Shown here in pieces: positions 24,914 through 58,885 of a stretch of DNA of 64,000 bases. Made by a program: the position numbers and the translations under genes. The first letter of the stretch is position 1, and each line of letters begins with the position of its first letter. The notes below the pieces were generated by a model. The model was given only the letters and a program-made list of their open reading frames with translations. It was not told the origin of the DNA and ran no database searches. The stretch covers positions 813 through 64,812 of IMG/VR virus record IMGVR_UViG_3300002835_000172, one strand, 5' to 3'. This DNA is from a virus. Lineage: Duplodnaviria > Caudoviricetes.

Positions 24914-24936
24914 ATTTTTTAGATTACTATAGTCCG

Positions 24937-37101: not shown

Positions 37102-37105
37102 GAAT

Positions 37106-39134: not shown

Positions 39135-39694
39135 TGGCAGATGGGGCATCTCTCCCTTTTGTTTATTTAACAAACTTTCTTTCAGAGTCAAATTTTCATG
39201 CCGTTCTTGGTCAGGCTCTCAGTTCGCATGGTGCAACGAGCGAGCAAACACCTCATTTGGTTAATCTTCAAAACATTGAAACTTGGTCTATAGGCAAAAA
39301 TATTGAGAGCCTCTACCCACTTCACTGTCAAAGAAAACTGCTCAAGATAAAAGGTGGGAATATCCTTGATTTTTCTGATAACAGAGGGATGGACTATCAT
39401 CAGGATTCTGTCCCCAATAAAGACTACCCCGATGATCCAGAGATCGGTTTTACGCCAAACGCTTCTGCTGTCTACTACTTGAACGATGATTACGAGGGCG
39501 GTGAAGTGTGTTTCACTACTGAAAGACCACCGATTCAGCAAGCAACAGTTGACACCAAAGGATTAAAAAATCTATTTACGCTAAAACCTCAACCAAATTC
39601 GTGTGTGTTCTTTGATGCAAACTTGTGGCATTGGGTGAGACCAGTAACCAAGGGAAGAAGGTTCTCTTCAACATACTTTTTGCTAGTTGAATAA
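39134..39694 (+). CDS. 2OG-Fe(II) oxygenase (prolyl hydroxylase-like)
   Basis: YHQD...YYLNDDYEGGE...WH.V.PV..G.R. Confidence 0.82.
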   Translation: MADGASLPFVYLTNFLSESNFHAVLGQALSSHGATSEQTPHLVNLQNIETWSIGKNIESLYPLHCQRKLLKIKGGNILDFSDNRGMDYHQDSVPNKDYPDDPEIGFTPNASAVYYLNDDYEGGEVCFTTERPPIQQATVDTKGLKNLFTLKPQPNSCVFFDANLWHWVRPVTKGRRFSSTYFLLVE

Positions 39695-42558: not shown

Positions 42559-43698
42559 CTAAAAAGTTAGGGAATTTGAGTAGTGTCGTTTCACTACTCG
42601 TGGGCAACAGCCTTTGGAATATTTGACGCCGTATTCGCCTTCTTGGAATCCAGCCCACTTTTTGCTTGTTTTGCGGTTTCTCCATGGGTGATCCAACGGG
42701 AGTAGGTCGTTGTCATCAAAGTATTTTACATCGGCAGGTTTGTCTGAGTTCAGCAACGCCAAAAACTTGTAGACGCGCTTCTTGGCAATCTCTTTTGAAC
42801 CATCTTCCAAGCCTCGCATGAAAACTATTTTGAGGTCACGAAGGTTGGTTTTTGCTGTTGTTTTTGCTTTAGCGTTGTTGTTTCTTACTCGTACAGCCAA
42901 ATCATTGATATCGCCACTTGTCACGGTTGGTGGTTTCTTTTTAGGTTTCGGTACACCCTTGAAAGACACCAGACCAGTCTGAGCCATTGAACCCTGATCA
43001 TCCTTTTTACCAAAACCCGCCCCCTTTCGGCGAGGTTTATTCCTAGGGCTGTTATCCCCTCGGATACCTGTGACGCGGTTGTAGTCAGACACATTAGAAC
43101 ATGGAAGCCAAACAAGTTTCCCATCCCGTGCCGTATAACGGCGAATACCGATACAGCCAAGATTCCTTGAACGGATACGAGCAGAATCAGGATCGCTGAA
43201 CGTATCAGGGTCTGTTGAACGGCTAACAAAGTTAACGAAACCCTTTTCTTCTAAAGACTTACCAGAAAACGAGCCTGTTACAAGTCCGCCACCCGGCAAG
43301 GTTGCGATACCGGAAATAGGTTTCTCATCAAGGTTCTCCCAACCCCGTTTAGGTGCCTTGTGGTTACAAACCGCATAATACTTTTTCCCTGCAAGAAGGA
43401 TGGTTCGCACACCACCACAACCACGAGCCTTAGAAATAGCGACAGCATCAGCACGATTCTCGTAATATGCATCAGACTTTGTTTCTAAACGCTTTGTCCG
43501 TTGAACCATTTTCGGCAACGGCTTCTTCTTCTTAGAAGCACGAACTTTCAAGTATTCGTCTTTGCCTTTTTTGATGGCTTCATATTCTTCACGCGAGGCG
43601 CAAGGCATCCAACCTTTGCCGTCTTCGTATACGCCTTGGCATCCAAGCATGCGTGCAACACGAAGAGCCTGATCTCGCGTTGTTTTAGGATCGGTCAT
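42559..43698 (-). CDS. multidomain head-region protein with three DUF3721-like 'A..LGC.G...W.PC' repeats
   Basis: ARMLGCQG..WMPC, SKARGCGG..YAVC, SRNLGCIG..WLPC; C-terminal RV.KFL...DNDLLP.DHP domain. Confidence 0.6.
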   Translation of the reverse strand: MTDPKTTRDQALRVARMLGCQGVYEDGKGWMPCASREEYEAIKKGKDEYLKVRASKKKKPLPKMVQRTKRLETKSDAYYENRADAVAISKARGCGGVRTILLAGKKYYAVCNHKAPKRGWENLDEKPISGIATLPGGGLVTGSFSGKSLEEKGFVNFVSRSTDPDTFSDPDSARIRSRNLGCIGIRRYTARDGKLVWLPCSNVSDYNRVTGIRGDNSPRNKPRRKGAGFGKKDDQGSMAQTGLVSFKGVPKPKKKPPTVTSGDINDLAVRVRNNNAKAKTTAKTNLRDLKIVFMRGLEDGSKEIAKKRVYKFLALLNSDKPADVKYFDDNDLLPLDHPWRNRKTSKKWAGFQEGEYGVKYSKGCCPRVVKRHYSNSLTF

Positions 43699-43705
43699 TT
43701 ATTTA

Positions 43706-43939
43706 TTATTCCGCCGTGTAAGGCATAGACATACCGTATTGTTCAAATAGTTCATCAATCTTTGAAGAATTCTCGCTATCCATCAAAAACAATACCATTG
43801 ATTCAAGATCTCCATCTTCACCAGTTTCGTCAGCGTATCCAGTAGCAATTGAAATAATCTTTGAACGCGTCTCCGAATTTTTGATAGTTGACAACAATTG
43901 GTCTTTTATTGAATTTTTTTGTTCTTCTGAAAGTTTCAC
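43706..43939 (-). CDS. small acidic partner ORF downstream of the GNAT-like protein (candidate immunity)
   Basis: 77 aa; overlaps the stop codon of 43936-46908 by 4 nt. Confidence 0.55.
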   Translation of the reverse strand: MKLSEEQKNSIKDQLLSTIKNSETRSKIISIATGYADETGEDGDLESMVLFLMDSENSSKIDELFEQYGMSMPYTAE

Positions 43940-46908
43940 GCGTTGCCCCTTGGTATTGCTCGTGCTCTTTGTCTCCGTGGAGCAGTTCCACCTATCTTGT
44001 TTTTAGCAAAAGAGAAAGTTCCACTACTAAACGGAAGATTGCTCTTGAACCAATGCTTAACAAACTCCCTGCGGACTTTGTCATTAGCGGGATCATCAAT
44101 AGCAAAAATCCAATCTTGGTGAATAAACTTTTTACCGCCACGAGTTTGAGCAATCATTGATTTGATTCTAAAATACTCCGCTTCAGAGTTAATCAAACCA
44201 CCCGCACCAAAGTTTTCATAAAAAGATAGCGCTTTTTTGAATCCCCCTAGTCTGTTTTCGGGTATATTGCCACCATTAAAACCAACTCTCGCCCAAACAT
44301 ATTGACCGTCATCAACTGCACCAACTTTTGCTTTACTGATACCAATCTGCTTTAAGAAAAGAAACGCATGCTGATTATAGATTGTCTGTATGTCAGCGCC
44401 TCTGTCCATTTTGCTTCTCACGAACATGGTTGATTGTTTTACATATCCACTATTTACGCTCACGAGGCGACCGGAATCACCAATTGCTGCACGAACAATA
44501 TTCCCGTTTGCATCAATTTCATTGAATACGACACTCACGCTGTGCTGATCGTTGTTCCCTATTCGCACCGTTGCTACCGCATTGTAAAGTTTTCCATTTG
44601 CACCCTCAATACGAGAATGACCATACGCTTCTTCTAAATACTTCTTTTTCCCCGCAAAGTCAAGCGAGCGCCATTTTTCTGGCGTCATATCCTCAAATGG
44701 TTTCTTTCCAGTACCGTAACGCTTTTCCATATACTTAGCAAGTTTTCCGCTACGACGCTTTATGGCATCGTCAATTTGTGATTTGATCTTCTTCACAACA
44801 TCTTCGTCTAGTGGTTTCACAACACCAGTTGCGTCAGGGTTGAAATTCAATCCTCTTTGAATTCTTTTTACTGCTTTGTCAACTTCAGGTTCAAAACGAT
44901 CATAATTCTTCAGCATCTGCTCGTATCGTCCAATACTTTCTTTCATTTTGGCAATATCTTTTGCCTTGCTGACGCGTAGTTCTTCCATTTGCGTTGGACT
45001 GAGATTTCCTGTTGGGTTCTTTATTAAAGCCCAAGCACTATCAACAGCGGCTTTGTCCCTGTTCAAAGCCTCACTGAGTTTGAGTCTGTTTAAAGCAATT
45101 CTTCGCACATAGGATGCTTGTGCTTCTTCAATTGTTTTTTTCAAATCAATTTGAGGATTGGCTTTATATTTCTCAATTATTGATTGAAGCAAATCTTGAA
45201 AATCTCTTTCAGCAGCCATTCGACCCTGATTGTCATTAAATATCATTTCGTCAATATGCCGCCCAAAGTTTTGTAGATTTTTAGGGTCTTTGATTTGGAG
45301 CAATACATCTTCTACGATTTTTTCGTTTGCCGTAGAAAGGTTCGCTACGTCTATTTTTGCTGGTTTGAATACAAGTTCAGATGGTGATTCATCACCAATG
45401 TTTGGAGGATTTGGTTTAACTCGTTTTGGTGTTTTGAATGGTGCGTCAATCGGGTCAATCGCAGGTACGGGAGCGGCGACTTCATCTTTGTTGGCATCAA
45501 GAATTTCCTGCCACGAATCGCGGTAATCCTTAATGTATGTCTTGACTCGTGCGATATTGATTTTTTCACCATTTCGTTCAATGAAGTCATTGTCTGAAAG
45601 TTCGCCTCTGTCAATTGCTTGTTGTAGACGCTCCAACCTTGCGTTTGATGCAGTAATTTTTGCGCTTGCTTCATCCCTTTTATCTCTTTTTCTGGCAGGA
45701 GTTTGCGGAAAATTGGCTGGATCATTAACAATCATTATTCGGTCATTTGGAATGACGTCACGAACAACATATTCTTGAAAATTGTCGTCGTTCAACGCTT
45801 GATTCAAGTCAACTTTTCGTGCAGCCTTCCTTGCTCGTTTTCTTTTTTGTGCGTCAGCGATGGCAGCCAGAGCCATCGCCTCACGGTTTCGCCTCATCTC
45901 CTCTGAACGAGCCGCGTTGTCGCTATCTCCGCGAGGTGCTGGTTTTGGAACCCTTCGCTGTTCTGATTCAGCGTTGAGCATCGCGCCTATGTCACCTTCA
46001 GGGTTTTTCCTAGGGCGACGAGGTTTAACAATCTTTGGCTCAACTATAGGTTTTTCAACAGCATTTTCTTTTTCTTGTTTTGGTGCTTTTGGCTTCTTTG
46101 TTGCTTCAACAACTGCACGGCGACGACGGCGAGCAGGTGCTTCGCCAGTACGCGGTGCACCGGGTTGTTCAATTTCACGATCCATGCGTCGTTGTTCTGA
46201 TTCGCGTAGATTACCTTCACCCCTTGGCTGTACTGCACGCCGTCTGCGGGCAGGACGAGCAACAGCATTGCGTCGTTTCAATTCCGCAATTACACGCTTG
46301 TAATCGTCGCTGTCTCTTCCGCCAGTAGCGTTTTCTAATTCGTCACGCATTTCTTGCAGAACATTTAGTGGTTCAGCCGCGAGGAGATTCCTATTGTTAC
46401 GAGGCGGACGAGCAGGGGCTAATTCTCGTGGTGTGTCAGGTGCATCAACCGATGGTGGTCGAGCAACAACAGTTCGCCTACGATCACCACGAGGGCTAGG
46501 TGCGTCTCCGCCGTCCAATCGTTCGGCAACGCCACGCAAACCTTGCTCAAGACGACCAGCGCCACCACCATTGGGATTAAGTCTTGCAAGTATCCGTCGT
46601 TCACGGCGAGCAATACGACGACCCCTACGAGCATCATCAACATTTTCCAAGCGTTGACCAATGTCAGATATTTGGTTTGCAATCCGACGGGCTACACCCC
46701 ATCCACAGGATCTACCAAAACGATCAGTTATTTGTCCACCGTAACGAGTACCAACTGGACAACGCCATCCACCGCGACGGTTGGTTCCCGGTATGGAAAG
46801 ACTCGGATCCCACATAGCACGGACAGCCTTAACTTCGTAAGCCATCGTTGACGTGTTTCTTTCACTAAGGAAAGATTTTGCTTTAAAGTCAACAATGTTC
46901 TGAAGCAT
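43936..46908 (-). CDS. large effector-like protein: shared N-terminal RCPVG module + Arg/Pro linker + GNAT-like C-terminal domain
   Basis: WDPSLSIPGTNRRGGWRCPVGTRYGGQITDR at the N-terminus; C-terminal RGADIQT...GI..A.V.A..DGQYVWARVGF. Confidence 0.65.
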   Translation of the reverse strand: MLQNIVDFKAKSFLSERNTSTMAYEVKAVRAMWDPSLSIPGTNRRGGWRCPVGTRYGGQITDRFGRSCGWGVARRIANQISDIGQRLENVDDARRGRRIARRERRILARLNPNGGGAGRLEQGLRGVAERLDGGDAPSPRGDRRRTVVARPPSVDAPDTPRELAPARPPRNNRNLLAAEPLNVLQEMRDELENATGGRDSDDYKRVIAELKRRNAVARPARRRRAVQPRGEGNLRESEQRRMDREIEQPGAPRTGEAPARRRRRAVVEATKKPKAPKQEKENAVEKPIVEPKIVKPRRPRKNPEGDIGAMLNAESEQRRVPKPAPRGDSDNAARSEEMRRNREAMALAAIADAQKRKRARKAARKVDLNQALNDDNFQEYVVRDVIPNDRIMIVNDPANFPQTPARKRDKRDEASAKITASNARLERLQQAIDRGELSDNDFIERNGEKINIARVKTYIKDYRDSWQEILDANKDEVAAPVPAIDPIDAPFKTPKRVKPNPPNIGDESPSELVFKPAKIDVANLSTANEKIVEDVLLQIKDPKNLQNFGRHIDEMIFNDNQGRMAAERDFQDLLQSIIEKYKANPQIDLKKTIEEAQASYVRRIALNRLKLSEALNRDKAAVDSAWALIKNPTGNLSPTQMEELRVSKAKDIAKMKESIGRYEQMLKNYDRFEPEVDKAVKRIQRGLNFNPDATGVVKPLDEDVVKKIKSQIDDAIKRRSGKLAKYMEKRYGTGKKPFEDMTPEKWRSLDFAGKKKYLEEAYGHSRIEGANGKLYNAVATVRIGNNDQHSVSVVFNEIDANGNIVRAAIGDSGRLVSVNSGYVKQSTMFVRSKMDRGADIQTIYNQHAFLFLKQIGISKAKVGAVDDGQYVWARVGFNGGNIPENRLGGFKKALSFYENFGAGGLINSEAEYFRIKSMIAQTRGGKKFIHQDWIFAIDDPANDKVRREFVKHWFKSNLPFSSGTFSFAKNKIGGTAPRRQRARAIPRGNA

Positions 46909-47253
46909 TTATTTCCATTTTCCTATAAGGGTGTCGTACTTGCCGTCATACTGATTTGGTTCAATGAAATCTGAAGGATTTGGCGTATAGCCATTCCAAT
47001 CCCAAAAACTCTCAAGTGATAATGCTTCGTATTCATACTTCTTTTTGTCATTTTCAACTTTTGACAATCTCTCCTTAAGAGAAGATAACCAATTCTTGTC
47101 GTTTTCATTTTCTTTTGGATTTACATATATAGAAACTTTTCCGTTTTTGATTACAACGATGTTGCGTGGTTCCTGTTTCTTTGCTTCATCATCAGAAAAG
47201 AAACTTACAAAATATCCATCTTCAATCATTTGTTTCTCCCTATGGTCTTGCAA
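46909..47253 (-). CDS. small partner ORF downstream of a kinase-like protein
   Basis: 114 aa, AT-rich, sits between two large effector-like genes. Confidence 0.55.
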   Translation of the reverse strand: MQDHREKQMIEDGYFVSFFSDDEAKKQEPRNIVVIKNGKVSIYVNPKENENDKNWLSSLKERLSKVENDKKKYEYEALSLESFWDWNGYTPNPSDFIEPNQYDGKYDTLIGKWK

Positions 47254-50101
47254 GACGAATCTCGTCCGCAGCCTCTTTCAGATTTTTGAGATTGACTCGT
47301 ATTGCTTGAATTGAGGCATCTATCTTGATTTTATCTGCTGGCGTAGCGGCATCCAATGAACCCCAAGCCTCTTTCATGTTTTCAACAATCAGATCAATTT
47401 GCTGTACTGTGAGTTTTGAAATTGAGTCTTGTATTTGCGCTAGTGCTGGTGCATCCTGTCGGTTGAACTGATCAACTGCGAGCATTCTTTTTGCATCCGC
47501 CTTGGATAGTTCTCTGATTTTTCCTACGCCGTTGTTGTAGATGCCATGGTCAATTGGGATTTGCTCATTTCCAACCCAGAGGTAGTTGCCTGCATGCCTA
47601 TCGGGATTGCCCATAACGCGATCCAAAACTCGCACCATTCCTTGCGCTACTGGATCTATCTGATTTGGACGATTCCGTCCAGCCTTTATGTCACCGTCAA
47701 CTACATCACCATAATGCTCTACAAGAATTGCCGCATTCCTAGTTATATTTCGGTGACCACGAATACTAACCATGTCTCCAGCAATTCTCACTCTAGACAT
47801 CGGTCTGCCAAATGCTTGACCAAGCACCGCTGCGTATTGTTCACCAATAAATTCATTTTCAACAAAAGACGGGCTCTTTAGGATATATTTTTTACCAGAA
47901 ACAGCATCTTCCACTACATATGTTTTGTTCTTTTTGCTTCGTGACGCCCTGTTGTTGATTCCGTTACCCGGATCAGCCAACAACTTAAATCGTTTTGAGA
48001 TCTGACCAGCAGGCTCGTTCGGATAGTTTCCATTGGCAAGAATCGCATCTTTCAGGAAAGCATCTGGGACATCATCAAGATCTCCGCCATTTTTCACAAA
48101 CTGATTTGCTTTTGCTTGTGTTGAAATGTTTGCGTTGCCCTTTTTCACTGCCTTGGGGACAAGTATTCCATCTATTTCAACGTGACCATGGTTTTTATTG
48201 AACCGTGACGCTTTGCTTTTCTTTATCCCTGCAACGTTTCGGTCATTGACTCTCTTCGCGGCTTCTTCGTCAAGTGAAACAACATTATTTTTTGGTGCGT
48301 TTCTTACTCTCGGCGCTCTTGGGGGAGTTGGTGGTGTTGGAGGTTCTGGTGGTGTTGGCGAACCATCCCCCTGTGATGGTGGGGTAGGGGCGTTTAATTG
48401 TGCATTTATCCTGTTGCGAAGAGCGGTCAATCCTCCAGCAGGAACACCAAATTCTTCTCTGACCATTCTACGGTCTTGGAGTTGTTGGTTTCCTCTAACT
48501 GCCATCATCTGATCATCGTCTAATACATAATACGCATCACGACCAGAGGATTTTCCATTTTGCGTATATGCAACAACATGGAATTGACGGTTCTCAAGTC
48601 TTGCGAGGCGGTTAGCCTTTTCTTTGGCATCTTCAAATCGGCTATAAGCAACACCAGTGTGGTCAAAATCTTGTGTTGGTTCAAGACGAGGATTCCTTGC
48701 CGCAGGGCGCACAGGTTTTACTGGTGCTGGTTCAGGTACATCATCAGGTGCGGGTTTCCGAGTTGCGCTACGGGCGGCGCCTGCTGTCGTTGCCTTCTTG
48801 CGACGACCACGGTTATTCCTTGGACGACGAGCCTGCGGTGTCGGTGGTTCAAAATCTTGTGGTGCGCTACGACCGTGAGCATCTTTCCAAGCGTCACGAA
48901 GATTAGGTTTGTTGATTGCATACCATTCGCGGCGTGTCAACATTCCAGCATTTCCACCACCTGCACGGATTTCACGAACACGCTTAGCGTATTCGTTGTA
49001 TTTTCTTAATACATATGGGCTGAAATCTTCTGATGCTCCTGCGTCTGATGCTTCGCGTGCTGTCAGTACATCAACATTGGCTGGTTGTGGTGCAACGCGT
49101 GGGCGTGGCTGTGGTCGTCGTTGTCCTGCTGGTGCAGGTCGGCGTGTAGGACGAGGTTTTGGCGCAGGTGTTGGCGCTGTTTCTGGAATAACATCGCGTC
49201 TCCTGTTTTGTGGTCGGCGAGCAGACGGTGCATCCACTTCTGCCTGTTCATTACCTTGCTGTCTTTCACCTCTAACAGCGTTCACAACTCTGCCAACATT
49301 GCTTGCATTCCAAACTTCGGCAGCGAATTCTCTACCTCCACCACGAGCCCTTCGTGGTTTCGGTTTGTCACCACCTTCAAGACGATCAGCAATTCCTCTT
49401 AAACCACCTTCAACGCGACCAGTCTCGGGAACCCCACCAAGCCGTCTCATCATTCGTGCGTTACGACGGTCAAGGCGACGCTTTCGTTTGTCGTCATCTC
49501 GTTGTTCTAAGCGTTCACCAATGTCAGCGATTTGGTTGGCGATACGGCGTGCTACGCCCCAACCACACGAACGACCAAAGCGATCGGTGATCTGTCCGCC
49601 ATATCGTGTCCCTACAGGGCATCGGAAACCACCACGACGGTTAGTGCCGGGAATAGAAAGACTCGGATCCCAAATTGCTCGCACACCTTTGATTTCAAAG
49701 TTGAAAGATGATTGGGTTTGATCAGAGATAAATGATGAAGCCTTAAAACTCAGAACATTTCGGAATTCTTCGTTTGAAAACTCAGAAAGTAAAACCTCAG
49801 ATATTGACAGAACAGGAAGGTTTTTGGTTTCTACAATTTCCTGTTTAAGGAATGCAAGGTTTGCAACCTTTTTCTCTATCGCTGATCCTGATGGGCTTGG
49901 ACCTTCAATAATTTTTGATGAGTCCATTGTTTGAACTAGTTCAGGTTTTGTTATAGGTGTTTTGCCATATTCTTGACGGAGAAATTTGGCAACTTCTTTA
50001 GCGGCTTCGGTCATTGGCTTGAAGGTGGATCCTTCAGGGGTCGTTGAGACGACCATAAATGGTGTGTTGTCGCGATTTTTGATAATGAAAACTAGGTTCA
50101 T
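47240..50101 (-). CDS. large effector-like protein: RCPVG module + linker + HipA/PI3-4-kinase-like domain
   Basis: shared module at about aa 118-205; KKYILK, NEFIGE, LDRVMGNPDRHAGN, PIDHG. Confidence 0.75.
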   Translation of the reverse strand: MNLVFIIKNRDNTPFMVVSTTPEGSTFKPMTEAAKEVAKFLRQEYGKTPITKPELVQTMDSSKIIEGPSPSGSAIEKKVANLAFLKQEIVETKNLPVLSISEVLLSEFSNEEFRNVLSFKASSFISDQTQSSFNFEIKGVRAIWDPSLSIPGTNRRGGFRCPVGTRYGGQITDRFGRSCGWGVARRIANQIADIGERLEQRDDDKRKRRLDRRNARMMRRLGGVPETGRVEGGLRGIADRLEGGDKPKPRRARGGGREFAAEVWNASNVGRVVNAVRGERQQGNEQAEVDAPSARRPQNRRRDVIPETAPTPAPKPRPTRRPAPAGQRRPQPRPRVAPQPANVDVLTAREASDAGASEDFSPYVLRKYNEYAKRVREIRAGGGNAGMLTRREWYAINKPNLRDAWKDAHGRSAPQDFEPPTPQARRPRNNRGRRKKATTAGAARSATRKPAPDDVPEPAPVKPVRPAARNPRLEPTQDFDHTGVAYSRFEDAKEKANRLARLENRQFHVVAYTQNGKSSGRDAYYVLDDDQMMAVRGNQQLQDRRMVREEFGVPAGGLTALRNRINAQLNAPTPPSQGDGSPTPPEPPTPPTPPRAPRVRNAPKNNVVSLDEEAAKRVNDRNVAGIKKSKASRFNKNHGHVEIDGILVPKAVKKGNANISTQAKANQFVKNGGDLDDVPDAFLKDAILANGNYPNEPAGQISKRFKLLADPGNGINNRASRSKKNKTYVVEDAVSGKKYILKSPSFVENEFIGEQYAAVLGQAFGRPMSRVRIAGDMVSIRGHRNITRNAAILVEHYGDVVDGDIKAGRNRPNQIDPVAQGMVRVLDRVMGNPDRHAGNYLWVGNEQIPIDHGIYNNGVGKIRELSKADAKRMLAVDQFNRQDAPALAQIQDSISKLTVQQIDLIVENMKEAWGSLDAATPADKIKIDASIQAIRVNLKNLKEAADEIRLARP

Positions 50102-50223
50102 TGTTTACTTTCCACATTCGTGAAGATATTCAGCAAGCCATGCAAATCTTGAGGTTGCATTATCGCTACCGTAAAATGGTATCACTAAGTGGGTGATATT
50201 AATTTTAGGTTGATGTCAATATA

Positions 50224-50520
50224 TTATTTGTTATCTAATTTTTTGTGACCCAAGGCAACTAGGAAATTATTAATTTTATCCTTATTTGAACCCTTGTACT
50301 CAAGTATTTCTGCATGACGGTATGAGTACCCATGCAACATACTCTCAAGGTCAGCCTTATCCGACGAGCCTTTCTTGACCGCCAAAAAGTGTTCATTATC
50401 CTTTTTGTCGGAATCTTTATCCTTTGAGTAATACTTAATAATCCCTTTATCGTCCTCAACTATGACGAGTGGATCCACCTGAACTAGTGGGTCTTTGGAG
50501 GTGATGATCGCTGCTCTCAT
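50224..50520 (-). CDS. small partner ORF (paralogue of 54910-55227)
   Basis: MRAAII...DPLVIVEDDKGI...GYSYRH. Confidence 0.6.
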   Translation of the reverse strand: MRAAIITSKDPLVQVDPLVIVEDDKGIIKYYSKDKDSDKKDNEHFLAVKKGSSDKADLESMLHGYSYRHAEILEYKGSNKDKINNFLVALGHKKLDNK

Positions 50521-50525
50521 GGTTC

Positions 50526-53198
50526 CTATGATCCTATAATCAAATCAGCAAGTCTGCCGGGGTCAACATCTGTTATATATTTCATTTTTCTTTGCGGTTT
50601 TACGCCAACCCTCAAAAGAGCCTGATCCCCACCCCTAGGGTTAGCGGTTCCATCCCCACCGGCTTTCAGTACATCTTCAACAACATTCATATACGGGTTT
50701 TTACGCTCTGCCTCACGGATGGACTTCTGAACCTCTTCAACGGCTAAGAGTATCTCGCGCCGACTTATTTGCCTATCTTTGAATTGCTGTCTCAATGTTG
50801 CAAGCATCTCGTTTCTTCTACCACCAACATCGTTGCCTAAAAAGCCTCGTAATCCTTCGTCGTTACCATCATAATTTTCGTGAGCCCGCCCACCCCAGTT
50901 GACATCAAACCCAAGAGAAGGATCAATTGGGACGAACCGCTTCTTACCACTGGAGTCAGTCGCTACAAAGAAGTTCCCTCCATGGCGGTCTCTGTTGACC
51001 ATGATGTAGTCCAAAAGTGTCGCTCTAACACGATCGGCGGGTTTTATTTGCGACACGGCTACTTGATTTCTTCCGTCTGTCAGCGCCCCATCAACGTAGT
51101 TCCCTGCGTGTTCATAAACAATAGCCCTACCAGCGCTGTTAGGGGCACCCGGTCCACCTTTTTGTTTTCCATCCATTCGCACACCACCGATAGGCATGCC
51201 AAGTCTACCAGCAAGATTATTGCCAATCACTTCATGAATGTCTTCGTTTTCTGCATGGGCACCACTTTGGTATTTTAAGAAAAACTTGTTTCCAGTGATG
51301 GCGTCGGTAAACATATGCATATTGTTGGGAATGTTGCCGTTAACACCACCACCAGCATCTGATTTAGAGAATCTTGTTGTTGCACCGTGTAGCGCTTCAC
51401 CCAATAACTCATCAGGGACATCAGCCAAATCTCCACCTTTTTCTAGGTGGTCAATTGCTTGCTCCTTGGTATCCATACCTTTGTTCCCCAATGGAACGCT
51501 TTTCACATCAGGCAAACCGTCTTCACCTAATTTGTTCAGTTTTTCTGGTGCATGACCATCTTTTGCTTTTGGTGGTGAGACATCCCATCCACCTTCTGGT
51601 TCTGGTATGTCTGCTGGTCGTTGTGGTGGTTGCGCTGGTTGCTGTACGCGTGGAGCGTTCTGGTCGTTGACATTATTATTTGGTACAACAACTTGATTTC
51701 GTTGCCTAAATTCAATAGCAGCATCAATTTCGGCAAGTCTTAATTCGGCAGCGGAAACTCCGTCTTTTATTTTTTCTTTTTGTCCCCACATTCGCAATAA
51801 ATTATCTCTGGCTTCGTCTCTTTCCCGTTCGCTACCATTCTTTTTACTCTGCCAGTCTTCAAAGGCTCTATCAAATCCTGCTTGAGCCTCTTTGAGAAGT
51901 TCTTGATCTCTAATTTTCTTTCCCAAAACTTCTTCTTTGGACATGTTGCGCAAATTATTGTAAGCGTTCGGCTTGTATCTTTCAATTTCCCCTTCTACTG
52001 CTTTGACTAAAGCCTCGTCTCTTTGCTGGTCAAACTCCCTGCGGGGGTTTATGTCTCTTGCTGGCAGTGGCGGTGGACCTGCTCGTCGTGCAGGTGCTTC
52101 AGGTTCAGGCTGTGGCGCTCCTGCTTGTTGCCCAAATATTTGTTGGTTAACAAAATTGCCACGAGCATTACGCTTATTGTTGTCATCGTAATACCGACCA
52201 AACCTTCTCTCTAGTTCGGCTTTTTCTTCGCCTTCAGGGAAGTCTGGTTTACGCCAATACGCATCTTCGGGTAGTCCGCGAAGATCGCCAAATCGGTTAA
52301 CAACATTACGGATAGAACGATCGTCCGGTATGCTCCCTCCCAACTCGTCTGCTGTTGGGTTCCATGCGGGTGGTGGTGGAATTGGTGATGATTGTTCCGC
52401 TGGTCGTTCTGGTGGTTTTGGTGCGGGTTTTCTGCGTGGCACCTTTGTCGGTACAGGTTTTGAACCGTCAACAAAATCTGCTTCAGGTTTTCTTCTAACA
52501 GTTCTTTTTGCGCCTTGTTGTGTAGCGTTTCGTCGGCGTCGTCGTGGAGCATTTGGTGCGGGTGGTTCACCTGTGCGTGGTGCGCCGGGTTGAACTATTT
52601 CTCTGTCCATTCTTCGTGCTTCTGATTCACGGAGATTTCCTCTTCTCCGAGGTGCCCGTGCTGGTTCTCTTGCTGGTTGTTCAGCATCTCCGCCAACAGG
52701 GATTCTTGGACGAGCAGGAGGTTCTATGCGTGCAGGATTTTGAACAGCGATTCGTGGACGAGCAGGAGCGCGTGGAGTAGTTACTGGTTTTCCAGTTGCT
52801 CCACCATCTAACGCGTCTGCCAAACCGCGAGCGCCACGCTCAAGTAAGCCGGGTTTATCTTGACGAGCCAAAAACCGTTGCACACGCGCATTCCGTTTTG
52901 CCAAACGAGCATTTCGTTTACGGTCGTCAACATTTTCTAGCCGTTCACCAATATCTGCTATCTGGTTTGCGATTCTCCGAGCAACACCCCACCCGCAAGA
53001 CCTTCCGTAACGGTCAGTGATTTGACCGCCATATCTTGTACCAACAGGGCAACGCCAACCACCACGGCGATTGGTGCCCGGAATAGACAAACTTGGATCC
53101 CAGAGAGCGCGAGCGCCTTTAACATCATAATTAAAAGTACTTGCAGTTTGCTCAGCGAGAAACGCGAGCGCCTTGTAATTCACTTCATTCTTGAGCAT
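50526..53198 (-). CDS. large effector-like protein: RCPVG module + linker + HipA/PI3-4-kinase-like domain
   Basis: shared N-terminal module; KFFLKY, IHEVIG, LLDYIMVNRDRHGGN, PIDP. Confidence 0.75.
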   Translation of the reverse strand: MLKNEVNYKALAFLAEQTASTFNYDVKGARALWDPSLSIPGTNRRGGWRCPVGTRYGGQITDRYGRSCGWGVARRIANQIADIGERLENVDDRKRNARLAKRNARVQRFLARQDKPGLLERGARGLADALDGGATGKPVTTPRAPARPRIAVQNPARIEPPARPRIPVGGDAEQPAREPARAPRRRGNLRESEARRMDREIVQPGAPRTGEPPAPNAPRRRRRNATQQGAKRTVRRKPEADFVDGSKPVPTKVPRRKPAPKPPERPAEQSSPIPPPPAWNPTADELGGSIPDDRSIRNVVNRFGDLRGLPEDAYWRKPDFPEGEEKAELERRFGRYYDDNNKRNARGNFVNQQIFGQQAGAPQPEPEAPARRAGPPPLPARDINPRREFDQQRDEALVKAVEGEIERYKPNAYNNLRNMSKEEVLGKKIRDQELLKEAQAGFDRAFEDWQSKKNGSERERDEARDNLLRMWGQKEKIKDGVSAAELRLAEIDAAIEFRQRNQVVVPNNNVNDQNAPRVQQPAQPPQRPADIPEPEGGWDVSPPKAKDGHAPEKLNKLGEDGLPDVKSVPLGNKGMDTKEQAIDHLEKGGDLADVPDELLGEALHGATTRFSKSDAGGGVNGNIPNNMHMFTDAITGNKFFLKYQSGAHAENEDIHEVIGNNLAGRLGMPIGGVRMDGKQKGGPGAPNSAGRAIVYEHAGNYVDGALTDGRNQVAVSQIKPADRVRATLLDYIMVNRDRHGGNFFVATDSSGKKRFVPIDPSLGFDVNWGGRAHENYDGNDEGLRGFLGNDVGGRRNEMLATLRQQFKDRQISRREILLAVEEVQKSIREAERKNPYMNVVEDVLKAGGDGTANPRGGDQALLRVGVKPQRKMKYITDVDPGRLADLIIGS

Positions 53199-54917
53199 TT
53201 ATTTTTTCTTCTTTGCGCTAACCAAGTCTGGTTTGATGAAGGTTTCGTACTGCCAACGAGGTGCTGTTCTTTCAATACCGTCAAGACCTGTGTAAGTAAC
53301 GAGTTCTAGAGGCTTTGGAAGCCTACCAGTATCAGCGATGAACTTGAATGCGCCTTCGGATTTTTTGGCGAAATCCTCAATGTTAGAAATGATGTTGTCT
53401 TTAGTGCTTGATTCTGCAAGAGAGTTAATCATTCGTGGGAACTTGCGCTTCTCGCCGATGGTAAATGGTCGTGAACGCTCAATGCTTACGACTACTCCGT
53501 TCGGCGCAACGAACGAGATTCTGCTCATAGATGGTCCACCAAGAAGGGCAAGATCATCAGCACCTATGTCGGATGGGAGTTGCACTGCACGAACCATAGC
53601 ACCGTCAACCATGTCAGGGTTCTCACTAAATGAACGAAGAACAGAAGATGGAACAACTGGTCGTAGAACAACACCATCTCGTCGGATCATTCGTCCTTCG
53701 CCTGCTGGTGCACCTTTGAGTGTTGATATTGATTGCTGTACGGAAGCGTTGAACTTATCTTTTTGGAAAGCGCCAGTTCGCGGGATTTGTGCCATACGAC
53801 TAATTTGGATTGTGCGCGTGTTGCTTGGGTTACCTTCTAGAACTTCTGAAAGATTTTCTGCTCGTGCTGTTGGCAATTTTGGTGGTGCAAGTCTTCGGGC
53901 TGCTCGTGCGAGCAACGCTAGTGGTCCTGGTATTTCAAACAACTGCGCTCCACATGTTGAGAAACGGTTGTCTGTGAAACGACCACCATATTCAAAACCG
54001 CTCGGGCATCGTGCTTGACGCCTGCGATTAGGCTTGAGCCTGCTGAGCGCCCCACCGCCACCGCCGGGAATAAGTGCGCCATAAAGTCTTGAGCGAATAG
54101 GTGCGCTGAATGGGGATATGTTGCCCGGTGTTACTACTGAACCAACCGCCTGAGCGGCTCTACCAAGTCCACTTGAAGAACCAACAAGACCTGCTTTGAT
54201 TTCCATGTCTTCAGCGTCATCTTTTTCAACACGGTATCCACCGCCACGCTTCTTGTATTCGCGAACAAGCCAAGCGTTTGCGTATGCGGACGGGTATACA
54301 TTGAATTTCTTTTTTGCTTCGGCTTTTACTCGCGCATAAAGTTCTTTGTCCGTTGGGATATTCGCACCTTTTAATGTGGTCTCATCAGATTTGAATGTGG
54401 ACACATTGATCGGCTTGTTTTCTTCTCGGTTACCCGCTGTTTCTGCACGACGCTTTCTGCGAACAGCGGAATCAATTTCTTCTGCGGACATTCTCATCGC
54501 TGTAGATTTCTTTACACACTTAGGGTATTTACCTGAATCTGCGTCTCCGCGACCACATGACTCAAATCCGCCACCTTTTTTCGGGCGTGAAATATCAACC
54601 CATTCTTCTTCAAACCATTTCCCTAATCCACCGCGCTTGGATTCATCACCGATAAAGGTTTCCGCACCTAGTTTTGATGTACGAGACTTTAGGTAAAGTT
54701 TTGCTTTAAAGTTTAGAAGAGCCCTACTTCCGTCAAGCGGAGTTTTACGAACATCTGATCCTTTAGTGAAAAGGAATTTTGTTTTTGCATTATCTGGGTT
54801 AAAATAAATTTCCTCACCAGAGACAATATTCGTCCGTTTCATAGCAGTTTTCATACGCATAGACATACGGAGTTTCCGTGCGAAATACTCAAAGTCTTGG
54901 TTGAGATAACTACTCAT
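53199..54917 (-). CDS. multidomain head-region protein (DUF5872-like domains + RCPSG module + unknown C-terminal domain)
   Basis: GGLGKWFEEEWVDI..CGR..YPKC; LYARVKAEAKKKF.VYPSAYA..W...YKKRGG; RCPSGFEYGGRFTD...CG. Confidence 0.6.
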   Translation of the reverse strand: MSSYLNQDFEYFARKLRMSMRMKTAMKRTNIVSGEEIYFNPDNAKTKFLFTKGSDVRKTPLDGSRALLNFKAKLYLKSRTSKLGAETFIGDESKRGGLGKWFEEEWVDISRPKKGGGFESCGRGDADSGKYPKCVKKSTAMRMSAEEIDSAVRRKRRAETAGNREENKPINVSTFKSDETTLKGANIPTDKELYARVKAEAKKKFNVYPSAYANAWLVREYKKRGGGYRVEKDDAEDMEIKAGLVGSSSGLGRAAQAVGSVVTPGNISPFSAPIRSRLYGALIPGGGGGALSRLKPNRRRQARCPSGFEYGGRFTDNRFSTCGAQLFEIPGPLALLARAARRLAPPKLPTARAENLSEVLEGNPSNTRTIQISRMAQIPRTGAFQKDKFNASVQQSISTLKGAPAGEGRMIRRDGVVLRPVVPSSVLRSFSENPDMVDGAMVRAVQLPSDIGADDLALLGGPSMSRISFVAPNGVVVSIERSRPFTIGEKRKFPRMINSLAESSTKDNIISNIEDFAKKSEGAFKFIADTGRLPKPLELVTYTGLDGIERTAPRWQYETFIKPDLVSAKKKK

Positions 54918-55227
54918 TTTTTGCCGATTCTTTCGGTTCTTCAGGTTCCGCTATTTCTGCGGGCAAGGTTGTCTTCCACTTTTTAGCCAACTGCCTTAAA
55001 AGTGTAATATTTTTTTCATCCAGCACATTAGTACTAACACTATGATACGACATTCCCGAGGTTGCTTTTTCAATAGTGTCCCTTTGGGACAGAAACAATT
55101 CGTTTGTCAAACTTGATGCGAACTTCGGGTCAGGGGCTACCACACCAAAAATGCCGTAATCTCCTTCCAGTAGGACATATGGGTTTCCCGAAACATCGGT
55201 GCTTGGGGTTACAAGGGCGTATCTCAT
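54910..55227 (-). CDS. small partner ORF (paralogue of 50224-50520)
   Basis: MRYALV...NPYVLLEGDYGI...GMSYHS; overlaps the stop codon of 55224-57077. Confidence 0.6.
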   Translation of the reverse strand: MRYALVTPSTDVSGNPYVLLEGDYGIFGVVAPDPKFASSLTNELFLSQRDTIEKATSGMSYHSVSTNVLDEKNITLLRQLAKKWKTTLPAEIAEPEEPKESAKNE

Positions 55228-57077
55228 ACAACACTCGCTACAAGATCTTCTAATGCCGAATCCGCTTTAGGGGCAGGTGGTACAACAATGATGTCTGCCA
55301 ACTGTTTTGGGGTCATCCCTTGCATTTCTCTTAGGCGTGACGCTGACTTTCTGATATCTGACTGCAACGTTTCTAGTTGCTCCAACTGCTCAGGGTTCAT
55401 CGCAAATTCGCCTATCAAATTGCGATCCTTGACCATCTCGTCAAGTTGGCTCAAAAGGCGATCTTCCAATGAATCTGCGTCAATTTTCTGTATATCTTGT
55501 AGAACCTTTTCGGCTTCCCCAACTAGTTCGCCATGGCTTTCGGCTGATCTACCATGACGCAAAGTAAGTTCGTTGCCGACTGGATGATTACGAATACCTG
55601 AAGAAAATTTTTCTGCTGTATCACTAAATTCGTAAACGCTCATCACAAAACTATGGTCAATAGGGATGGCGTCAACACCATCGGAGTTTTCCGCGAACAG
55701 AATGTTCCCACTATGCCTATCTCCATTAGCCAAAACAATATCCATCACATGCATATGAACCAATTTTCGGCTATCAACTTTTTTCATCACTTCCGGATCA
55801 GAAGAAAGAATCTTCCCTTCGTATGAGTTATGAACCAGATCCGTAACAACACCCATAGCCGCCCTAGTTGGTGCTGCTTGAACCACGCGAAGCGAAGACG
55901 ATGGATAGCCAAACTCCTCAGTTATTGACACAGCAAGAACCTCATTCACAGGTTCAAACCATCGGGATGCTCCACCCTTGGTCAGGGGTGCTTTGCTATG
56001 CGGAACATTCTCATCCCACATGGACTGCCGTGAAGCGTATTTGACACCAAACATTTGACCTGTTGACCTATCTCGGAAGCGATTCATCCCTACGACACCG
56101 CCACCAGTGCCAAGTAACTCAAATCGCTTTATTTCTGAAACATTGCCTTCAGAGTCGTAAACATCAATATTTTCTAGAATCGCGTCAAGTACCAAAGCAT
56201 CACTTATTTCATTTAGTTTTCCGCCATTGGCAATATGCTGTGAAGCCTTCTCAACTGTGTCAATGTCTTTTTTGACAGTAGGGAGATCTCTTGAAATATT
56301 TCTTCCGTTTGCATCAGCAATACCTATAACAGGATCAAAATCTTTTGCCTTCGCAATAGTGCTATTGCCTTTCTTGAAACCGCTAGGCGATTTGACCACG
56401 GGTGGATCAGCCTTCGGATCCTCTTTTTTATCTTTGCGACGCTTTAATGTCGCTAGGAGGAAATTCTTTGCATCAACGGTGGCGTCTCGTTTAATCTTCC
56501 CCGCTACTGCTTCCAACTGTTCTTTTTTCTTGTCAGATATTTTCCCGCGCCTATGAAGCGAGTCAGTAGCAAAGTCCAATAGTTGCGCACCGCCAGACTT
56601 CAATAAAACCATACCGAAAAGCGTAGATTGTGTCATTGAATCTGAACCATCTGCGTACATGTAATCCATTGTTTGCAGGGCAATCATCGCCGCTGCTTTT
56701 GAACCATTTTTTACTTTTTCAGATTTGAAAATTACCCGAGCGCCATCAATCAATTTCCCAGCCATGGAAGCCGCCCCGCGTGCTGCTGATTCAGCAGAAG
56801 GGGTGAGGCAGTTGGACATCTGCATGTCGGTGAACTGATTTGCGTTAGGTGTACCGGGTGGGCATCGCAACTTACCCAAAGAATCAACTATCACCCCCGC
56901 AGCGCGCGCCGCTCTATGACCGACGGAGGTTAACTCTGGTCGGTCTTTTACAGTAGGTCCAAGGAAACCTTTGAACAGCAAAACATTCTCTTGAACAGCA
57001 GCAACAGATTTGCGGTATTCTGCAACTCTCTCGTTTGCGTCAAAAGCGCGAGACGATTTGATCATCGCCTCAACCAA
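55224..57077 (-). CDS. effector-like protein: RCPPG module + HipA/PI3-4-kinase-like domain
   Basis: LRCPPGTPNANQFTD...C; MFGVKY, VNEVLA, MDIVLANGDRHSGN, PIDHS. Confidence 0.72.
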   Translation of the reverse strand: MVEAMIKSSRAFDANERVAEYRKSVAAVQENVLLFKGFLGPTVKDRPELTSVGHRAARAAGVIVDSLGKLRCPPGTPNANQFTDMQMSNCLTPSAESAARGAASMAGKLIDGARVIFKSEKVKNGSKAAAMIALQTMDYMYADGSDSMTQSTLFGMVLLKSGGAQLLDFATDSLHRRGKISDKKKEQLEAVAGKIKRDATVDAKNFLLATLKRRKDKKEDPKADPPVVKSPSGFKKGNSTIAKAKDFDPVIGIADANGRNISRDLPTVKKDIDTVEKASQHIANGGKLNEISDALVLDAILENIDVYDSEGNVSEIKRFELLGTGGGVVGMNRFRDRSTGQMFGVKYASRQSMWDENVPHSKAPLTKGGASRWFEPVNEVLAVSITEEFGYPSSSLRVVQAAPTRAAMGVVTDLVHNSYEGKILSSDPEVMKKVDSRKLVHMHVMDIVLANGDRHSGNILFAENSDGVDAIPIDHSFVMSVYEFSDTAEKFSSGIRNHPVGNELTLRHGRSAESHGELVGEAEKVLQDIQKIDADSLEDRLLSQLDEMVKDRNLIGEFAMNPEQLEQLETLQSDIRKSASRLREMQGMTPKQLADIIVVPPAPKADSALEDLVASVV

Positions 57078-57407
57078 CTATTTGTCGCTAGATTCTGACG
57101 CTTTGTTAAAGAAAGAAAGTGGAACAACATCATCATCCTCTGCATCTTTTTTCTTAGAAGGCTTTTTCGTTTCCACTTTGGTTTCTTGTGCATCCTCAAC
57201 AGGTTCATCAACGCTGATCTCTACTGATGCAGGTGTTTCAACTTCCAACACTGCTTCTTCAACGACAACTACTTCCTCTTTGACTTCAACCTCAACAACA
57301 GAAATCTGAACTTCAGGCGTCTCAACTACGGGCACTTGTTCTTGTTTTGTGTCAAAAGCAAGACCAGAAGTGTTCACTGAGTCAAAAGGTTGGTTTTCTT
57401 TTTTCAT
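57078..57407 (-). CDS. Glu/Val-rich low-complexity protein
   Basis: 109 aa, coupled to both neighbours. Confidence 0.55.
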   Translation of the reverse strand: MKKENQPFDSVNTSGLAFDTKQEQVPVVETPEVQISVVEVEVKEEVVVVEEAVLEVETPASVEISVDEPVEDAQETKVETKKPSKKKDAEDDDVVPLSFFNKASESSDK

Positions 57408-58885
57408 TAAATGTCGCCAAGACCTGTTTCAATTTCAAGCATTTCAAGTTCCATCAAACTGCTTAGGAACTCTTTCGCTTCGTCATCCAAAAGAGTCTTT
57501 TCTTCCGACCATTCGGCAGGAATCATGTCTTCTTTGTCAAGTTCCATTGCACGCTTCTTGATATGTGCTTTTGCTTTTTCTTTATCTTTTGCGCGACCGT
57601 AAGACATGATTGCGTTCTTCAAGTCTTCTTCATCCTTGATTGGGTATGAGCCGTCTGGCAAAGCCATTCCGCCCTTAGCCATTTCGTCACGCTCATCTTC
57701 GCTGTACATTGCCTTAAGGGCAACGTCGGCTACTTCTGCATCAATGTCTGCGGCTTCTTCGGGATCGTATTCATCAAATCCGAGGATCTCACCGTCAACA
57801 CCAACATAAACATCGTATGACTTTCCGTCTACGCCTTCAATTTCTACAGCGTAAGCGTCGTAACCGTCAAACATGTCGGCATCAACAGAAACAACTTCGC
57901 CTTCAATTGACTTGGTTGCAATATCTGAAGCCTCGCTGAACGAGATTACTTTTTGTCCGGGTACGGTTGCTACTTCACCAATCAAATCTTCATTCAAAAG
58001 GTGCCAGCCCATGCACTCGCCTGACGAACCATCAAAGTAAGCCTCAACTGGCTTTCCATCTTTGCGTTGAACATCAACAACAAAAACATCAACTTCGTCT
58101 GCGTAGCCAGAGTCAAGAACTTTTCCTGCGAACATGCTTTCTGCCATGCCTTCAATTTCAAGCAGGCTTGGCATTGTGTCTTGTTGTTCACATCCACCTG
58201 GGCATGATGCACAGATTTCTGAACCGCCCGCATAGACGCGACGCTCAATGGCGCAAACAAAAGCAAGATCGTCATAGTCGGCAGACTTGACGCCCATTGT
58301 TTCCATGCGCTTAGCGCGAGCCTTCTTGCGTTGCTCCATCATCTTTTCAATCTCGCTGTACATCTTCTCTTCTTCATCATCAAGATCTTCGGGCATGTCT
58401 TCTTCGTCGTCTTCTTCTTCCATATCTACGACTTCAGTAGGCTTCTTTTTCTTTTTTGCAGGAGCAGGGGTCATTCCCTCTTCCATCATTGCGAGATCTT
58501 CTTCCATCTTTGCTCCCTTTTCGTCTGAAGCGGAAACCCACTCAGATTTTTCGGTTGCTACTTCTGGTGCTGCGTCAGCAGGTACGGCTTCTTCCGTTTG
58601 CGTGACAGCCTTTGCTCCACACTTGCCACAAACTTTTGCTCCCGGCTTGTAGCCACATTCTGCTAACTCCAAACCTTTGGCGCATTCAATTCCGCCGTCT
58701 GCAAGAAGTTTTACTGTTGGTGTTTCGCTAGCCATGTTCGTGGACTCCTTGTAGTGCATTGTTTTTGCAATACACTTTGTTGGATTAGAGCAAACAGAGC
58801 ATGGCGTCAAGCGTTTATCGCCTGACATCAGACACTGATATTTTGCTGTTTTTTGTGGTAAACCTGTTATTGAAGTATAACCCAT
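57407..58885 (-). CDS. acidic multidomain protein with PepSY-like repeats and a DUF6582-like domain
   Basis: ISFSEASDIATKSIEGEVVSVD..YAVEI....YDVYV...GEIL (PepSY-like); GMALPDGSYPI...DLKNAI..GRAK..HIKKRA; alternative start at 58735 has an AAGGAG RBS. Confidence 0.6.
   Translation of the reverse strand: MGYTSITGLPQKTAKYQCLMSGDKRLTPCSVCSNPTKCIAKTMHYKESTNMASETPTVKLLADGGIECAKGLELAECGYKPGAKVCGKCGAKAVTQTEEAVPADAAPEVATEKSEWVSASDEKGAKMEEDLAMMEEGMTPAPAKKKKKPTEVVDMEEEDDEEDMPEDLDDEEEKMYSEIEKMMEQRKKARAKRMETMGVKSADYDDLAFVCAIERRVYAGGSEICASCPGGCEQQDTMPSLLEIEGMAESMFAGKVLDSGYADEVDVFVVDVQRKDGKPVEAYFDGSSGECMGWHLLNEDLIGEVATVPGQKVISFSEASDIATKSIEGEVVSVDADMFDGYDAYAVEIEGVDGKSYDVYVGVDGEILGFDEYDPEEAADIDAEVADVALKAMYSEDERDEMAKGGMALPDGSYPIKDEEDLKNAIMSYGRAKDKEKAKAHIKKRAMELDKEDMIPAEWSEEKTLLDDEAKEFLSSLMELEMLEIETGLGDI

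Follow-up and report, generated by a model that had tools for sequence, protein, structure and literature searches.

The locus described here raises the question of why a tailed phage should keep, in the midst of its head genes, five large genes that share a module in their N-terminal part and vary in their C-terminal ends. The genes lie in a stretch of 64,000 nucleotides (hereafter the window), which comprises nearly the whole of the 64.8 kb IMG/VR virus record IMGVR_UViG_3300002835_000172, with completeness estimated at about 45%. A preliminary description of the window had placed five large co-oriented open reading frames (ORFs), here termed A990, B953, C890, D572 and E617 and together the array, between the prohead protease and the capsid gene. 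All five were confirmed in position, on the minus strand, while the interval turned out to hold also p492 and p109 on the protease side and p379 next to the capsid gene. Comparison with related viral loci revealed a conserved shared module, polymorphic C-termini, small downstream genes that co-vary with those C-termini, a strict location in the head module, a cassette swap and a fused giant form of the array; packaging, injection, binding by the small partners and host targets are what we infer. We consider the chances somewhat better than even that the five genes encode effectors which are loaded into the capsid by a module other than MuF and injected together with the DNA, and that their small partners are cognate inhibitors or chaperones.

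The shared module is marked by the motif R-C-P-x-G-x7-T-D-x5-C, which was matched five times in a six-frame translation of the window, once per array ORF and nowhere else; the same pattern (RCP.G.{7}TD.{5}C) had 0 matches in 200 triplet-shuffled windows. Alignment and motif scan bore out the earlier claim of a near-identical block in three of the genes with divergent versions in the two others. The block of about 105 amino acids (aa) occupies residues 4-109 of both A990 (43936-46908, motif at nt 46705-46764) and C890 (50526-53198, motif at nt 52995-53054) and residues 115-220 of B953 (47240-50101, motif at nt 49565-49624), in which it is preceded by an N-terminal extension of 114 aa. D572 (53199-54917, motif at nt 53952-54011) and E617 (55224-57077, motif at nt 56808-56867) carry divergent versions around the same core, in D572, whose N-terminal part contains DUF5872, at about residues 258-363. 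ORFs were called mechanically, taking the longest frame that opens with the first ATG, GTG or TTG; in gene-caller output E617 starts four codons later (613 aa). Across relatives the modules form three paralogous classes in the constant order E, D and then ABC (1 to 3 copies), and the motif was invariant in 36/36 aligned modules from the three classes.

Conservation is distributed unevenly along these proteins. Mean column identity in the ABC-type module reaches 78% (26 non-redundant sequences), whereas the kinase domains of module-bearing proteins are 14-29% identical; the enzymatic ends are far more diverged than the ABC module, and conservation is lowest in the linkers, which are unalignable. 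Among the most distant loci, identity to the window was 60-69% for the ABC module, compared with 57-63% for the portal and 74-77% for the capsid protein. Such high conservation of the module suggests a constrained contact with a conserved structural partner. The module regions had no match in Pfam, PHROGs or NCBIfam (in the last, nothing above cut-off). Furthermore, no MuF domain (PF04233/PF06152 superfamily) was matched in any of the five array proteins (Pfam, E<=0.1), and hhalign of the module against the phage's own MuF alignment gave a probability of 0.08%. By these comparisons the shared module is unrelated to MuF. As had been proposed, the MuF domain is here fused to the portal (734 aa, 61139-63343, minus strand; Phage_portal 1.4e-49 at residues 56-380, Phage_Mu_F 9.2e-08 at residues 641-728), and a different module is common to the array.

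The assignment of the C-termini as three kinase-like, one GNAT-like and one unassigned was upheld by Pfam, PHROG, alignments and predicted structures, and each array protein of the window has at most one recognisable enzymatic domain. E617 matches the Pfam family PI3_PI4_kinase (PF00454) with 31.5 bits (cut-off 27.1) and C890 with 17.7 bits, below cut-off; B953 has no match to it and reaches 12.4 bits with HipA_2, likewise below cut-off. The ends of all three match phrog_3162, and through this family and the common alignment B953 and C890 are tied to the E617 kinase. In 36/36 non-redundant kinase homologues, 14-29% identical to E617, the ATP-binding Lys, the helix-C Glu, the catalytic loop D-R-H-x-x-N and the metal-binding Asp were invariant. 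The kinase profile, compared with the PDB, matched Fam20, PI4KB, PI3K, mTOR and ATM with E from 1.5e-05 to about 4e-03. On these conserved residues and matches, the ends of E617, C890 and B953 are predicted to be intact kinases of the PI3/4K-like branch.

In A990 the ABC-type module is followed by an Arg-rich linker, a helical middle and a C-terminal domain with a predicted GNAT fold (about residues 740-975). Structure prediction, recommended for the C-termini at the outset, gave for the last 350 aa a model with a mean predicted local distance difference test (pLDDT) of 79.4 from a 16-sequence alignment. The top Foldseek rows were almost all GNAT-fold enzymes, together with p300/CBP acetyltransferases (E from 5e-04, target template modelling (TM) score about 0.4), and the VIA-align rows shown were enzymes with a GNAT fold or domains resembling it (Z 6.5-7.8 over 100-143 residues). 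Among the proteins matched by fold are GCN5/PCAF, NatD, Elp3 and the tRNA-acetylating toxins AtaT, TacT and KacT. A990 had no match to a Pfam acetyltransferase family, and the canonical Q/R-x-x-G-x-G/A acetyl-CoA motif was not evident by eye in the GNAT-like alignment, with no formal test made. Since the fold match is consistent but middling and there is no sequence-profile match, we go only as far as 'GNAT-like', which is a fair label for the predicted model; acetyltransferase activity is a hypothesis drawn from it. The C-terminal domain of D572 (residues 385-572, pLDDT 70-87) found no convincing counterpart: Foldseek against the PDB gave no row at E<=0.001, the best hit of VIA-align wide had Z 4.9 (JAMM-like), and the first ESM Atlas matches scored 0.86-0.88, under the 0.9 threshold for a lead. 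Several 'minor capsid protein' rows of uncultured phages in BFVD (E 1e-04 to 1e-02, low TM) serve as a lead only. With hhalign this domain was rejected as a kinase (1.1% probability against the kinase profile) and as a MuF domain (0.17% against the phage's own MuF alignment).

Four of the five large genes are directly followed by a small ORF of 77-114 aa, as the ORF coordinates confirm. On the minus strand, s77 (77 aa, acidic with an isoelectric point (pI) of 4.3, family S2, 43706-43939) follows A990, s114 (114 aa, family S8, 46909-47253) follows B953, s98 (98 aa, family S1, 50224-50520) follows C890 and s105 (105 aa, also family S1, 54910-55227) follows the kinase end of E617. They abut the large gene, overlap its stop by 4-14 nt or, in the case of s98, stand 5 nt off, while D572 has no such partner and is abutted by C890. 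Among relatives, the partner was defined as the longest ORF of 40-170 aa starting -60 to +200 nt from the stop of the large gene, and partners were grouped by BLAST; families S6, S7, S13, S15 and S20, which lie out of frame inside the next large gene, were treated as spurious, and the statistics cover 119 distinct gene-partner pairs. GNAT-like ends were followed by S2 in 17/17 cases, 14 with the module N-terminal and 3 with it behind a B-like extension, and S2 was always found after a GNAT-like domain. Within the E slot alone, a kinase was followed by S1 (10/10), an end of the type termed CT4 by S5 (8/8) and DUF3626 by S10 (2/2). Kinase ends on ABC modules were followed by S1, S3, S4, S8, S9 or S11, some of which are distantly related.

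The partner therefore tracks the C-terminal domain and not the module or the position, as expected if it binds that domain. The 16 non-redundant members of S2 go down to 19-30% identity with two invariant positions, and scans of the window and relative ORFs against family libraries gave no DNA-binding family match for the small ORFs scanned, s77 included. In a phage of which no prophage copies were found, a role as inhibitor or chaperone within the producing cell is likelier for the partners than one as classical immunity protein. The pair A990/s77 recalls the GNAT toxin-antitoxin pairs AtaT-AtaR, TacT-TacA and KacT-KacA, in which a GNAT-fold enzyme also stands beside a small cognate protein, and these toxins turned up when the A990 C-terminus was compared by structure (Z 6.5-7.0). 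In contrast to those pairs, here there is no relation at the sequence level, the partner lies downstream and is fused to nothing, and the enzyme forms the last part of a head-module protein of 990 aa.

The architecture of a constant N-terminal module, a variable C-terminus and a downstream small gene in the head module is strongly supported by relatives. Of 526 candidates (489-1,558 aa) in the search with the ABC-type module, 413 passed at E<=0.001; the E-type N-terminal part gave 174 out of 3,409 candidates. With a profile built from the three module classes together, 535 representatives were obtained at 50% identity, of which 270 had E<=1e-10, with lengths of 87 to 4,528 aa. All module relatives found stem from viral or metagenome contigs. 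C-termini were seen for 150 of the 535 representatives and for 120 of each homologue list; many loci are near-duplicates, for which counts were de-duplicated where relevant, and clusters are single-linkage BLAST clusters. The array was present in every relative examined, and 152/152 motif ORFs in 43 related viral loci sit between protease/p492/p109 and p379/capsid gene; among the 16 loci with both flanks, 10 have 4 motif ORFs and 6 have 5. Tabulated by C-terminus and gene context, as the preliminary description had advised, the homologues differ in their C-termini, and neither a homologue outside head modules nor a constant C-terminus was seen in the 43 loci.

The C-terminal types are unequally distributed over the slots. 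Out of 120 listed homologues of the ABC type, 94 end in a kinase, 25 in a GNAT-like domain and 1 in neither, while 120 listed homologues of E617, the most variable slot among relatives, fall into seven C-terminal clusters with 41, 35 (kinase), 30, 6, 6 (DUF3626), 1 and 1 members. The largest of these (41) is probably the CT4 type of the loci, judging by protein lengths. CT4 ends show by eye an HExxH motif and a downstream Y-x-x-T-N-x-x-E-x-x-A-E-like motif, and their profile had a single PDB match, to a fragment of lethal factor, that falls short of significance (E 0.18); for the CT5 type the PDB profile search gave nothing meaningful. One protein, P0176, combines a kinase with the end of the largest E-slot cluster (HExxH type), more distant phages have a D-type module with a degenerate kinase-like end in place of the usual D domain, and one giant relative contains a NUDIX domain. 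At the E slot of locus L010 (6264-7952) we found DUF3626 (PF12294, 40.7 bits, cut-off 27), a type absent from the window. The Salmonella effector SopF is an ADP-ribosyltransferase. DUF3626 is the domain of this effector (PMC6682159). By these comparisons, C-termini are exchanged among the relatives while the N-terminal module stays conserved.

This arrangement has the three-part logic of MuF polymorphic toxins, namely a conserved head-associated N-terminal part, a variable enzymatic or toxic C-terminus and a small downstream ORF in the head or packaging module (PMC5576092); for MuF toxins, a small ORF directly downstream was reported for 89.4% of 191 genes (Jamet et al. 2017, PMC5576092). One alternative is that the array proteins act between bacteria, as MuF-like polymorphic toxins of a temperate phage whose lysogen the small ORFs would protect as immunity proteins, but this we hold to be highly improbable. 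The module shared by the array is not MuF and no MuF domain was found in its proteins, the protease, p492 and p109 separate the first array gene from the portal, and 4-5 paralogous carriers per genome are present instead of one. Moreover, MuF toxins are described as exclusive to temperate phages (PMC5576092), whereas no prophage copies were found for the array: when one genome per species was scanned by pattern for 185,579 prokaryote species, no relative of the ABC-type module or of D572 came up, although diverged copies can escape such scans. A Pfam scan of the 50 ORFs of >=100 aa in window positions 1-40000 likewise listed no integrase family, in a record that is only about 45% complete.

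Two further observations bear on the history of the array. The window and locus L007, on a contig of 144.9 kb, share 93.9% identity across the 14,520 nt that lead from the portal to window position 48702; beyond this position, in the middle of B953, L007 aligns only at the next module and in scattered patches. The L007 homologue of B953 has another kinase end, which is followed by an S3 partner instead of the S8 of the window (s114). Within the collinear stretch, the E proteins are 85% identical and their neighbours 98-100%. The pattern marks a recent cassette exchange with a breakpoint in the linker near nt 48702.

Secondly, the array occurs in a fused form. Local profile searches classified the 150 listed representatives as module plus kinase (56), module only (33, several of them fragments), module plus GNAT-like domain (33) and complex (28). 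Among the complex forms are proteins of 1,850-2,870 aa in which a D-type module with the D domain is joined to an ABC-type module, a GNAT-like domain and a kinase; P0329 (4,528 aa) combines a single module with seven GNAT-like domains and one kinase, where short matches may not be true GNAT cores because the GNAT-like profile includes the helical N-terminal part. In loci L050, L052 and L055, with portals about 60% and capsid proteins about 63% identical to those of the window, a single ORF of 2,796-3,067 aa stands exactly in the place of the array and unites the D-type module with the D C-terminus, an ABC-type module, a GNAT-like domain and a kinase. The gene order there is portal, separate MuF, protease, p492-like, giant, an acidic ORF of about 200 aa, p379-like and capsid gene. 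Phage polyvalent proteins, which are likewise phage-encoded in a virion-gene context with kinase, GNAT, ART and metallopeptidase-type domains, were predicted to be packaged in the capsid and injected (Iyer et al. 2017, PMC5512222). The giant relatives (2,000-4,528 aa) fit this description, including the presence of at least two effector-type domains, and the proteins of the window do not: their domains are distributed among five genes that each bring a copy of the module, and cognate small partners are present. In addition, the array kinases are of the DRHxxN (PI3/4K-like) type, whereas PMC5512222 describes a truncated Ser/Thr/Tyr kinase clade. Judged from these alignments, the five genes of the window are the split counterpart of one polyvalent-type giant protein.

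The giants also share a domain with the protease. The tail of the window protease (residues 349-431, 59750-59998, minus strand), which is basic, Cys/His-rich and assigned to phrog_6439, is 61-63% identical to the first ~100 residues of the giants (residues 15-98). As the protease works inside the procapsid, this common domain is weak support for an internal location. More generally, head-module proteins appear to exchange small domains. Residues 1-80 of B953 (49862-50101, minus strand) are 31-39% homologous to a small separate ORF or to the start of a p379-like protein (L030 19009-20328, L034 10116-10409, L047 15758-15997). The gene p253 (DUF6321; 40271-41032, minus strand) stands separately after the capsid gene in the window, and a p253-like part (80-88% identity, about residues 140-253) is fused to the C-terminus of the protease in L022, L024, L030, L032, L040, L043 and L046. 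Cys motifs of the DUF3721 type are present in p379 of the window and, in the sister clade, in p492-like and p379-like proteins (L050 8011-9813 and 19236-20771), the latter of which also has DUF5824 in the L050 clade.

Cassette exchange and fusion also bear on a second explanation, in which the array proteins are late cytoplasmic enzymes of the producing cell that are never packaged. Their targets during assembly might be, for instance, scaffold, capsid or host proteins, which they would phosphorylate or acylate; the N-terminal module would then be a common docking or regulatory element and the small ORFs regulators. The genes are indeed tightly coupled within a late structural operon, the enzymes look catalytically intact, and the deacetylase-domain protein encoded at 37064-38047 hints at acyl-modification biology in the infected cell. 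We nevertheless regard this explanation as rather unlikely: rapid exchange of unrelated enzyme types at one slot would be unexpected for assembly housekeeping, as would a cassette swap between phages that are 94% identical and fusion into polyvalent-type multi-enzyme giants.

For capsid-loaded effectors, the following course can be envisaged. During procapsid assembly, the N-terminal module would dock each protein to a conserved internal head component, while the basic, disordered Arg/Pro linkers would associate with acidic scaffold-like proteins and later lie along the packaged DNA. The linker would let the protein pass the tail channel, so that the proteins exit with the DNA at infection and the C-terminal enzymes modify host targets at the very start, before phage gene expression. 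In the producing cell, the small, mostly acidic partner would bind the cognate C-terminal domain and either silence the enzyme or keep it competent for loading, and C-terminus and partner would travel together as a cassette through recombination at the boundary of module or linker. Isoelectric points and net charges confirmed the Arg/Pro-rich linkers noted earlier in A990, B953 and C890; these three and D572 have a pI of about 10, with Arg/Pro-rich stretches of up to +11 net charge per 50 aa, p379 is also basic (pI about 10), and p492, p109 and the protease tail are acidic (pI 4.2-4.8).

The course has a precedent in bacteriophage T4. The T4 capsid targeting sequence is a short peptide that is cut off by the prohead protease. 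T4 internal proteins and Alt are diverse cargo that share only a conserved N-terminal element, enter the scaffolding core and travel with the DNA into the host (PMC3012670). The array module differs from the T4 element in its size of about 100 aa, in its two invariant cysteines and in being sometimes internal (residues 115-220 of B953, about 258-363 of D572).

Several points weigh against capsid-loaded effectors. Loading and injection are argued only from gene position, analogy and the fused forms in relatives, and no cultured phage that could supply a proteome has the array. In the model of full-length D572 the region of the D-type module (residues 229-382) has a pLDDT <50, which is predicted disorder and supports no docking-domain fold. 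E617, with a pI of 6.2 and no Arg/Pro linker, leaves one of the five proteins uncovered by the linker idea, and D572 is without a partner gene. Regarding the enzymes, the kinase matches to known families are confined to the region of the catalytic loop, and the GNAT-like domain of A990 has 0 PDB sequence-profile matches at E<=1, its assignment resting on VIA-align Z values of 7-7.8 in a range (<8) that can reflect common arrangements.

The same charge pattern, basic A, B, C, D and p379 next to acidic p492, p109 and protease tail, would also suit mainly structural proteins of the head interior, either an inner body or DNA-condensing and histone-like, in which module and linkers organise the DNA and the enzymatic ends are secondary. 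Presence of the array in every relative examined and conservation of D, which has no partner, agree with such a role. Conserved catalytic residues and co-variation of the partners point instead to selection on enzyme function, and the linker sequences are the least conserved part, so that we rate a mainly structural role as unlikely. A further proposal starts from the types of the C-termini, several of which are nearest to effectors acting on eukaryotic cells (the PI3/PI4-kinase catalytic loop, and DUF3626 of SopF, PMC6682159). A 'Trojan horse' has been put forward for freshwater actinophages, with ADP-ribosyltransferases as the proposed cargo (PMC6802176), and array enzymes might by the same reasoning target eukaryotic predators that ingest infected cells or virions. 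Capsids would in this case carry exchangeable enzymes against grazing protists, the Arg-rich linkers would become cell-penetrating after digestion in the phagosome and the partners would silence the enzymes in the bacterium, a scenario to which we give very little credence. The kinase matches cover only the catalytic loop common to the whole superfamily, no translocation domain is evident, and the head-module position and the partner genes would be left unexplained. We therefore return to effectors that are loaded by the shared module and injected with the DNA as the explanation we favour, at the strength stated above.

The virus itself is, on the evidence of its genes, a phage of actinobacteria, because it encodes a WhiB-family regulator (26441-26812, plus strand; Pfam scan, 7.6e-13) and its major capsid protein is closest to those of Gordonia and Brevibacterium phages (47-56% identity). 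One close homologue comes from a record named 'uncultured Caudovirales phage UFOVP', a name series that stems from freshwater viromes. No tRNA genes were found in the window. Among cultured phages (50,697 records), there was no DNA or protein match for the array, C890 or the E617 kinase domain, and D572 matches them only through its DUF5872-like N-terminal part, in marine phages. Gordonia phage DalanDe, the closest cultured capsid relative examined, has no such array. Directly upstream of its capsid gene stands an annotated capsid maturation protease of 1,633 aa (L057 8943-13844), in which the S78 domain is confined to residues 1219-1296, with no Pfam match in the 1,200 residues at the start.

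The remaining head genes of the window frame the array in the order portal-MuF, S78 protease, p492, p109, the five large genes with their small followers, p379 and capsid gene, all on the minus strand. The portal-MuF gene forms the upstream boundary of the head module, and the protease behind it (700 aa, 58940-61042; Peptidase_S78 5.9e-11) has a long C-terminal extension. Upstream of the array stand its conserved neighbour, the acidic p492 (492 aa, pI 4.3, 57407-58885), a possible scaffold-like protein with a weak PepSY match, and the small, very acidic p109 (pI 4.2, 57078-57407), which was recognised from the ORF list, its pI and relatives. Downstream, the basic Cys-motif protein p379 (DUF3721 by Pfam, 42559-43698) is conserved as a neighbour, and the major capsid protein of the HK97 fold family (41111-42433; Phage_capsid 3.9e-47) marks the boundary. 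A few kb from the head module with its GNAT-like cargo, a gene with a histone-deacetylase-family domain (37064-38047, plus strand; Hist_deacetyl 4.1e-17) may be the deacylase counterpart to that cargo. Auxiliary enzymes are encoded at 15339-16457 (minus), 20712-22240 (minus), 22316-23278 (plus), 24703-25929 (plus), 29416-30180 (minus) and 39119-39694 (plus) and comprise two GlcNAc-type glycosyltransferases, two short-chain dehydrogenases, 2OG-Fe(II) oxygenases and a PhyH dioxygenase, and two N6/N4 DNA methylases are found at 17416-18135 and 31237-32613.

Head-associated carriers of exchangeable enzymatic domains are already known in phages as a kind. In the literature searched, supplements excluded, we found no published description of the array, and PMC6802176 has no mention of 'kinase'. 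Not found described are a carrier module other than MuF that lacks a match in Pfam, PHROG and NCBIfam, the 4-5 paralogous module genes per genome, cognate partner cassettes in a phage without detectable prophage copies and the relationship of split and fused forms. If our reading is true, tailed phages would have a second, MuF-independent route to load exchangeable enzymes into the capsid, used by a large family (535 representatives), with partner cassettes whose recombination would resemble that of toxin-immunity modules in polymorphic toxins of bacteria. The family occurs in phages of freshwater actinobacteria, which a paper on such phages ranks first in abundance among the microbes of the freshwater water column (PMC6802176). 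The array kinases and the GNAT-like enzyme form new candidate enzyme-binder pairs with their partners, and the module is a candidate tag for loading foreign proteins into actinophage capsids. Moreover, with the split array and the fused giants nature provides a test case for the formation and break-up of polyvalent proteins.

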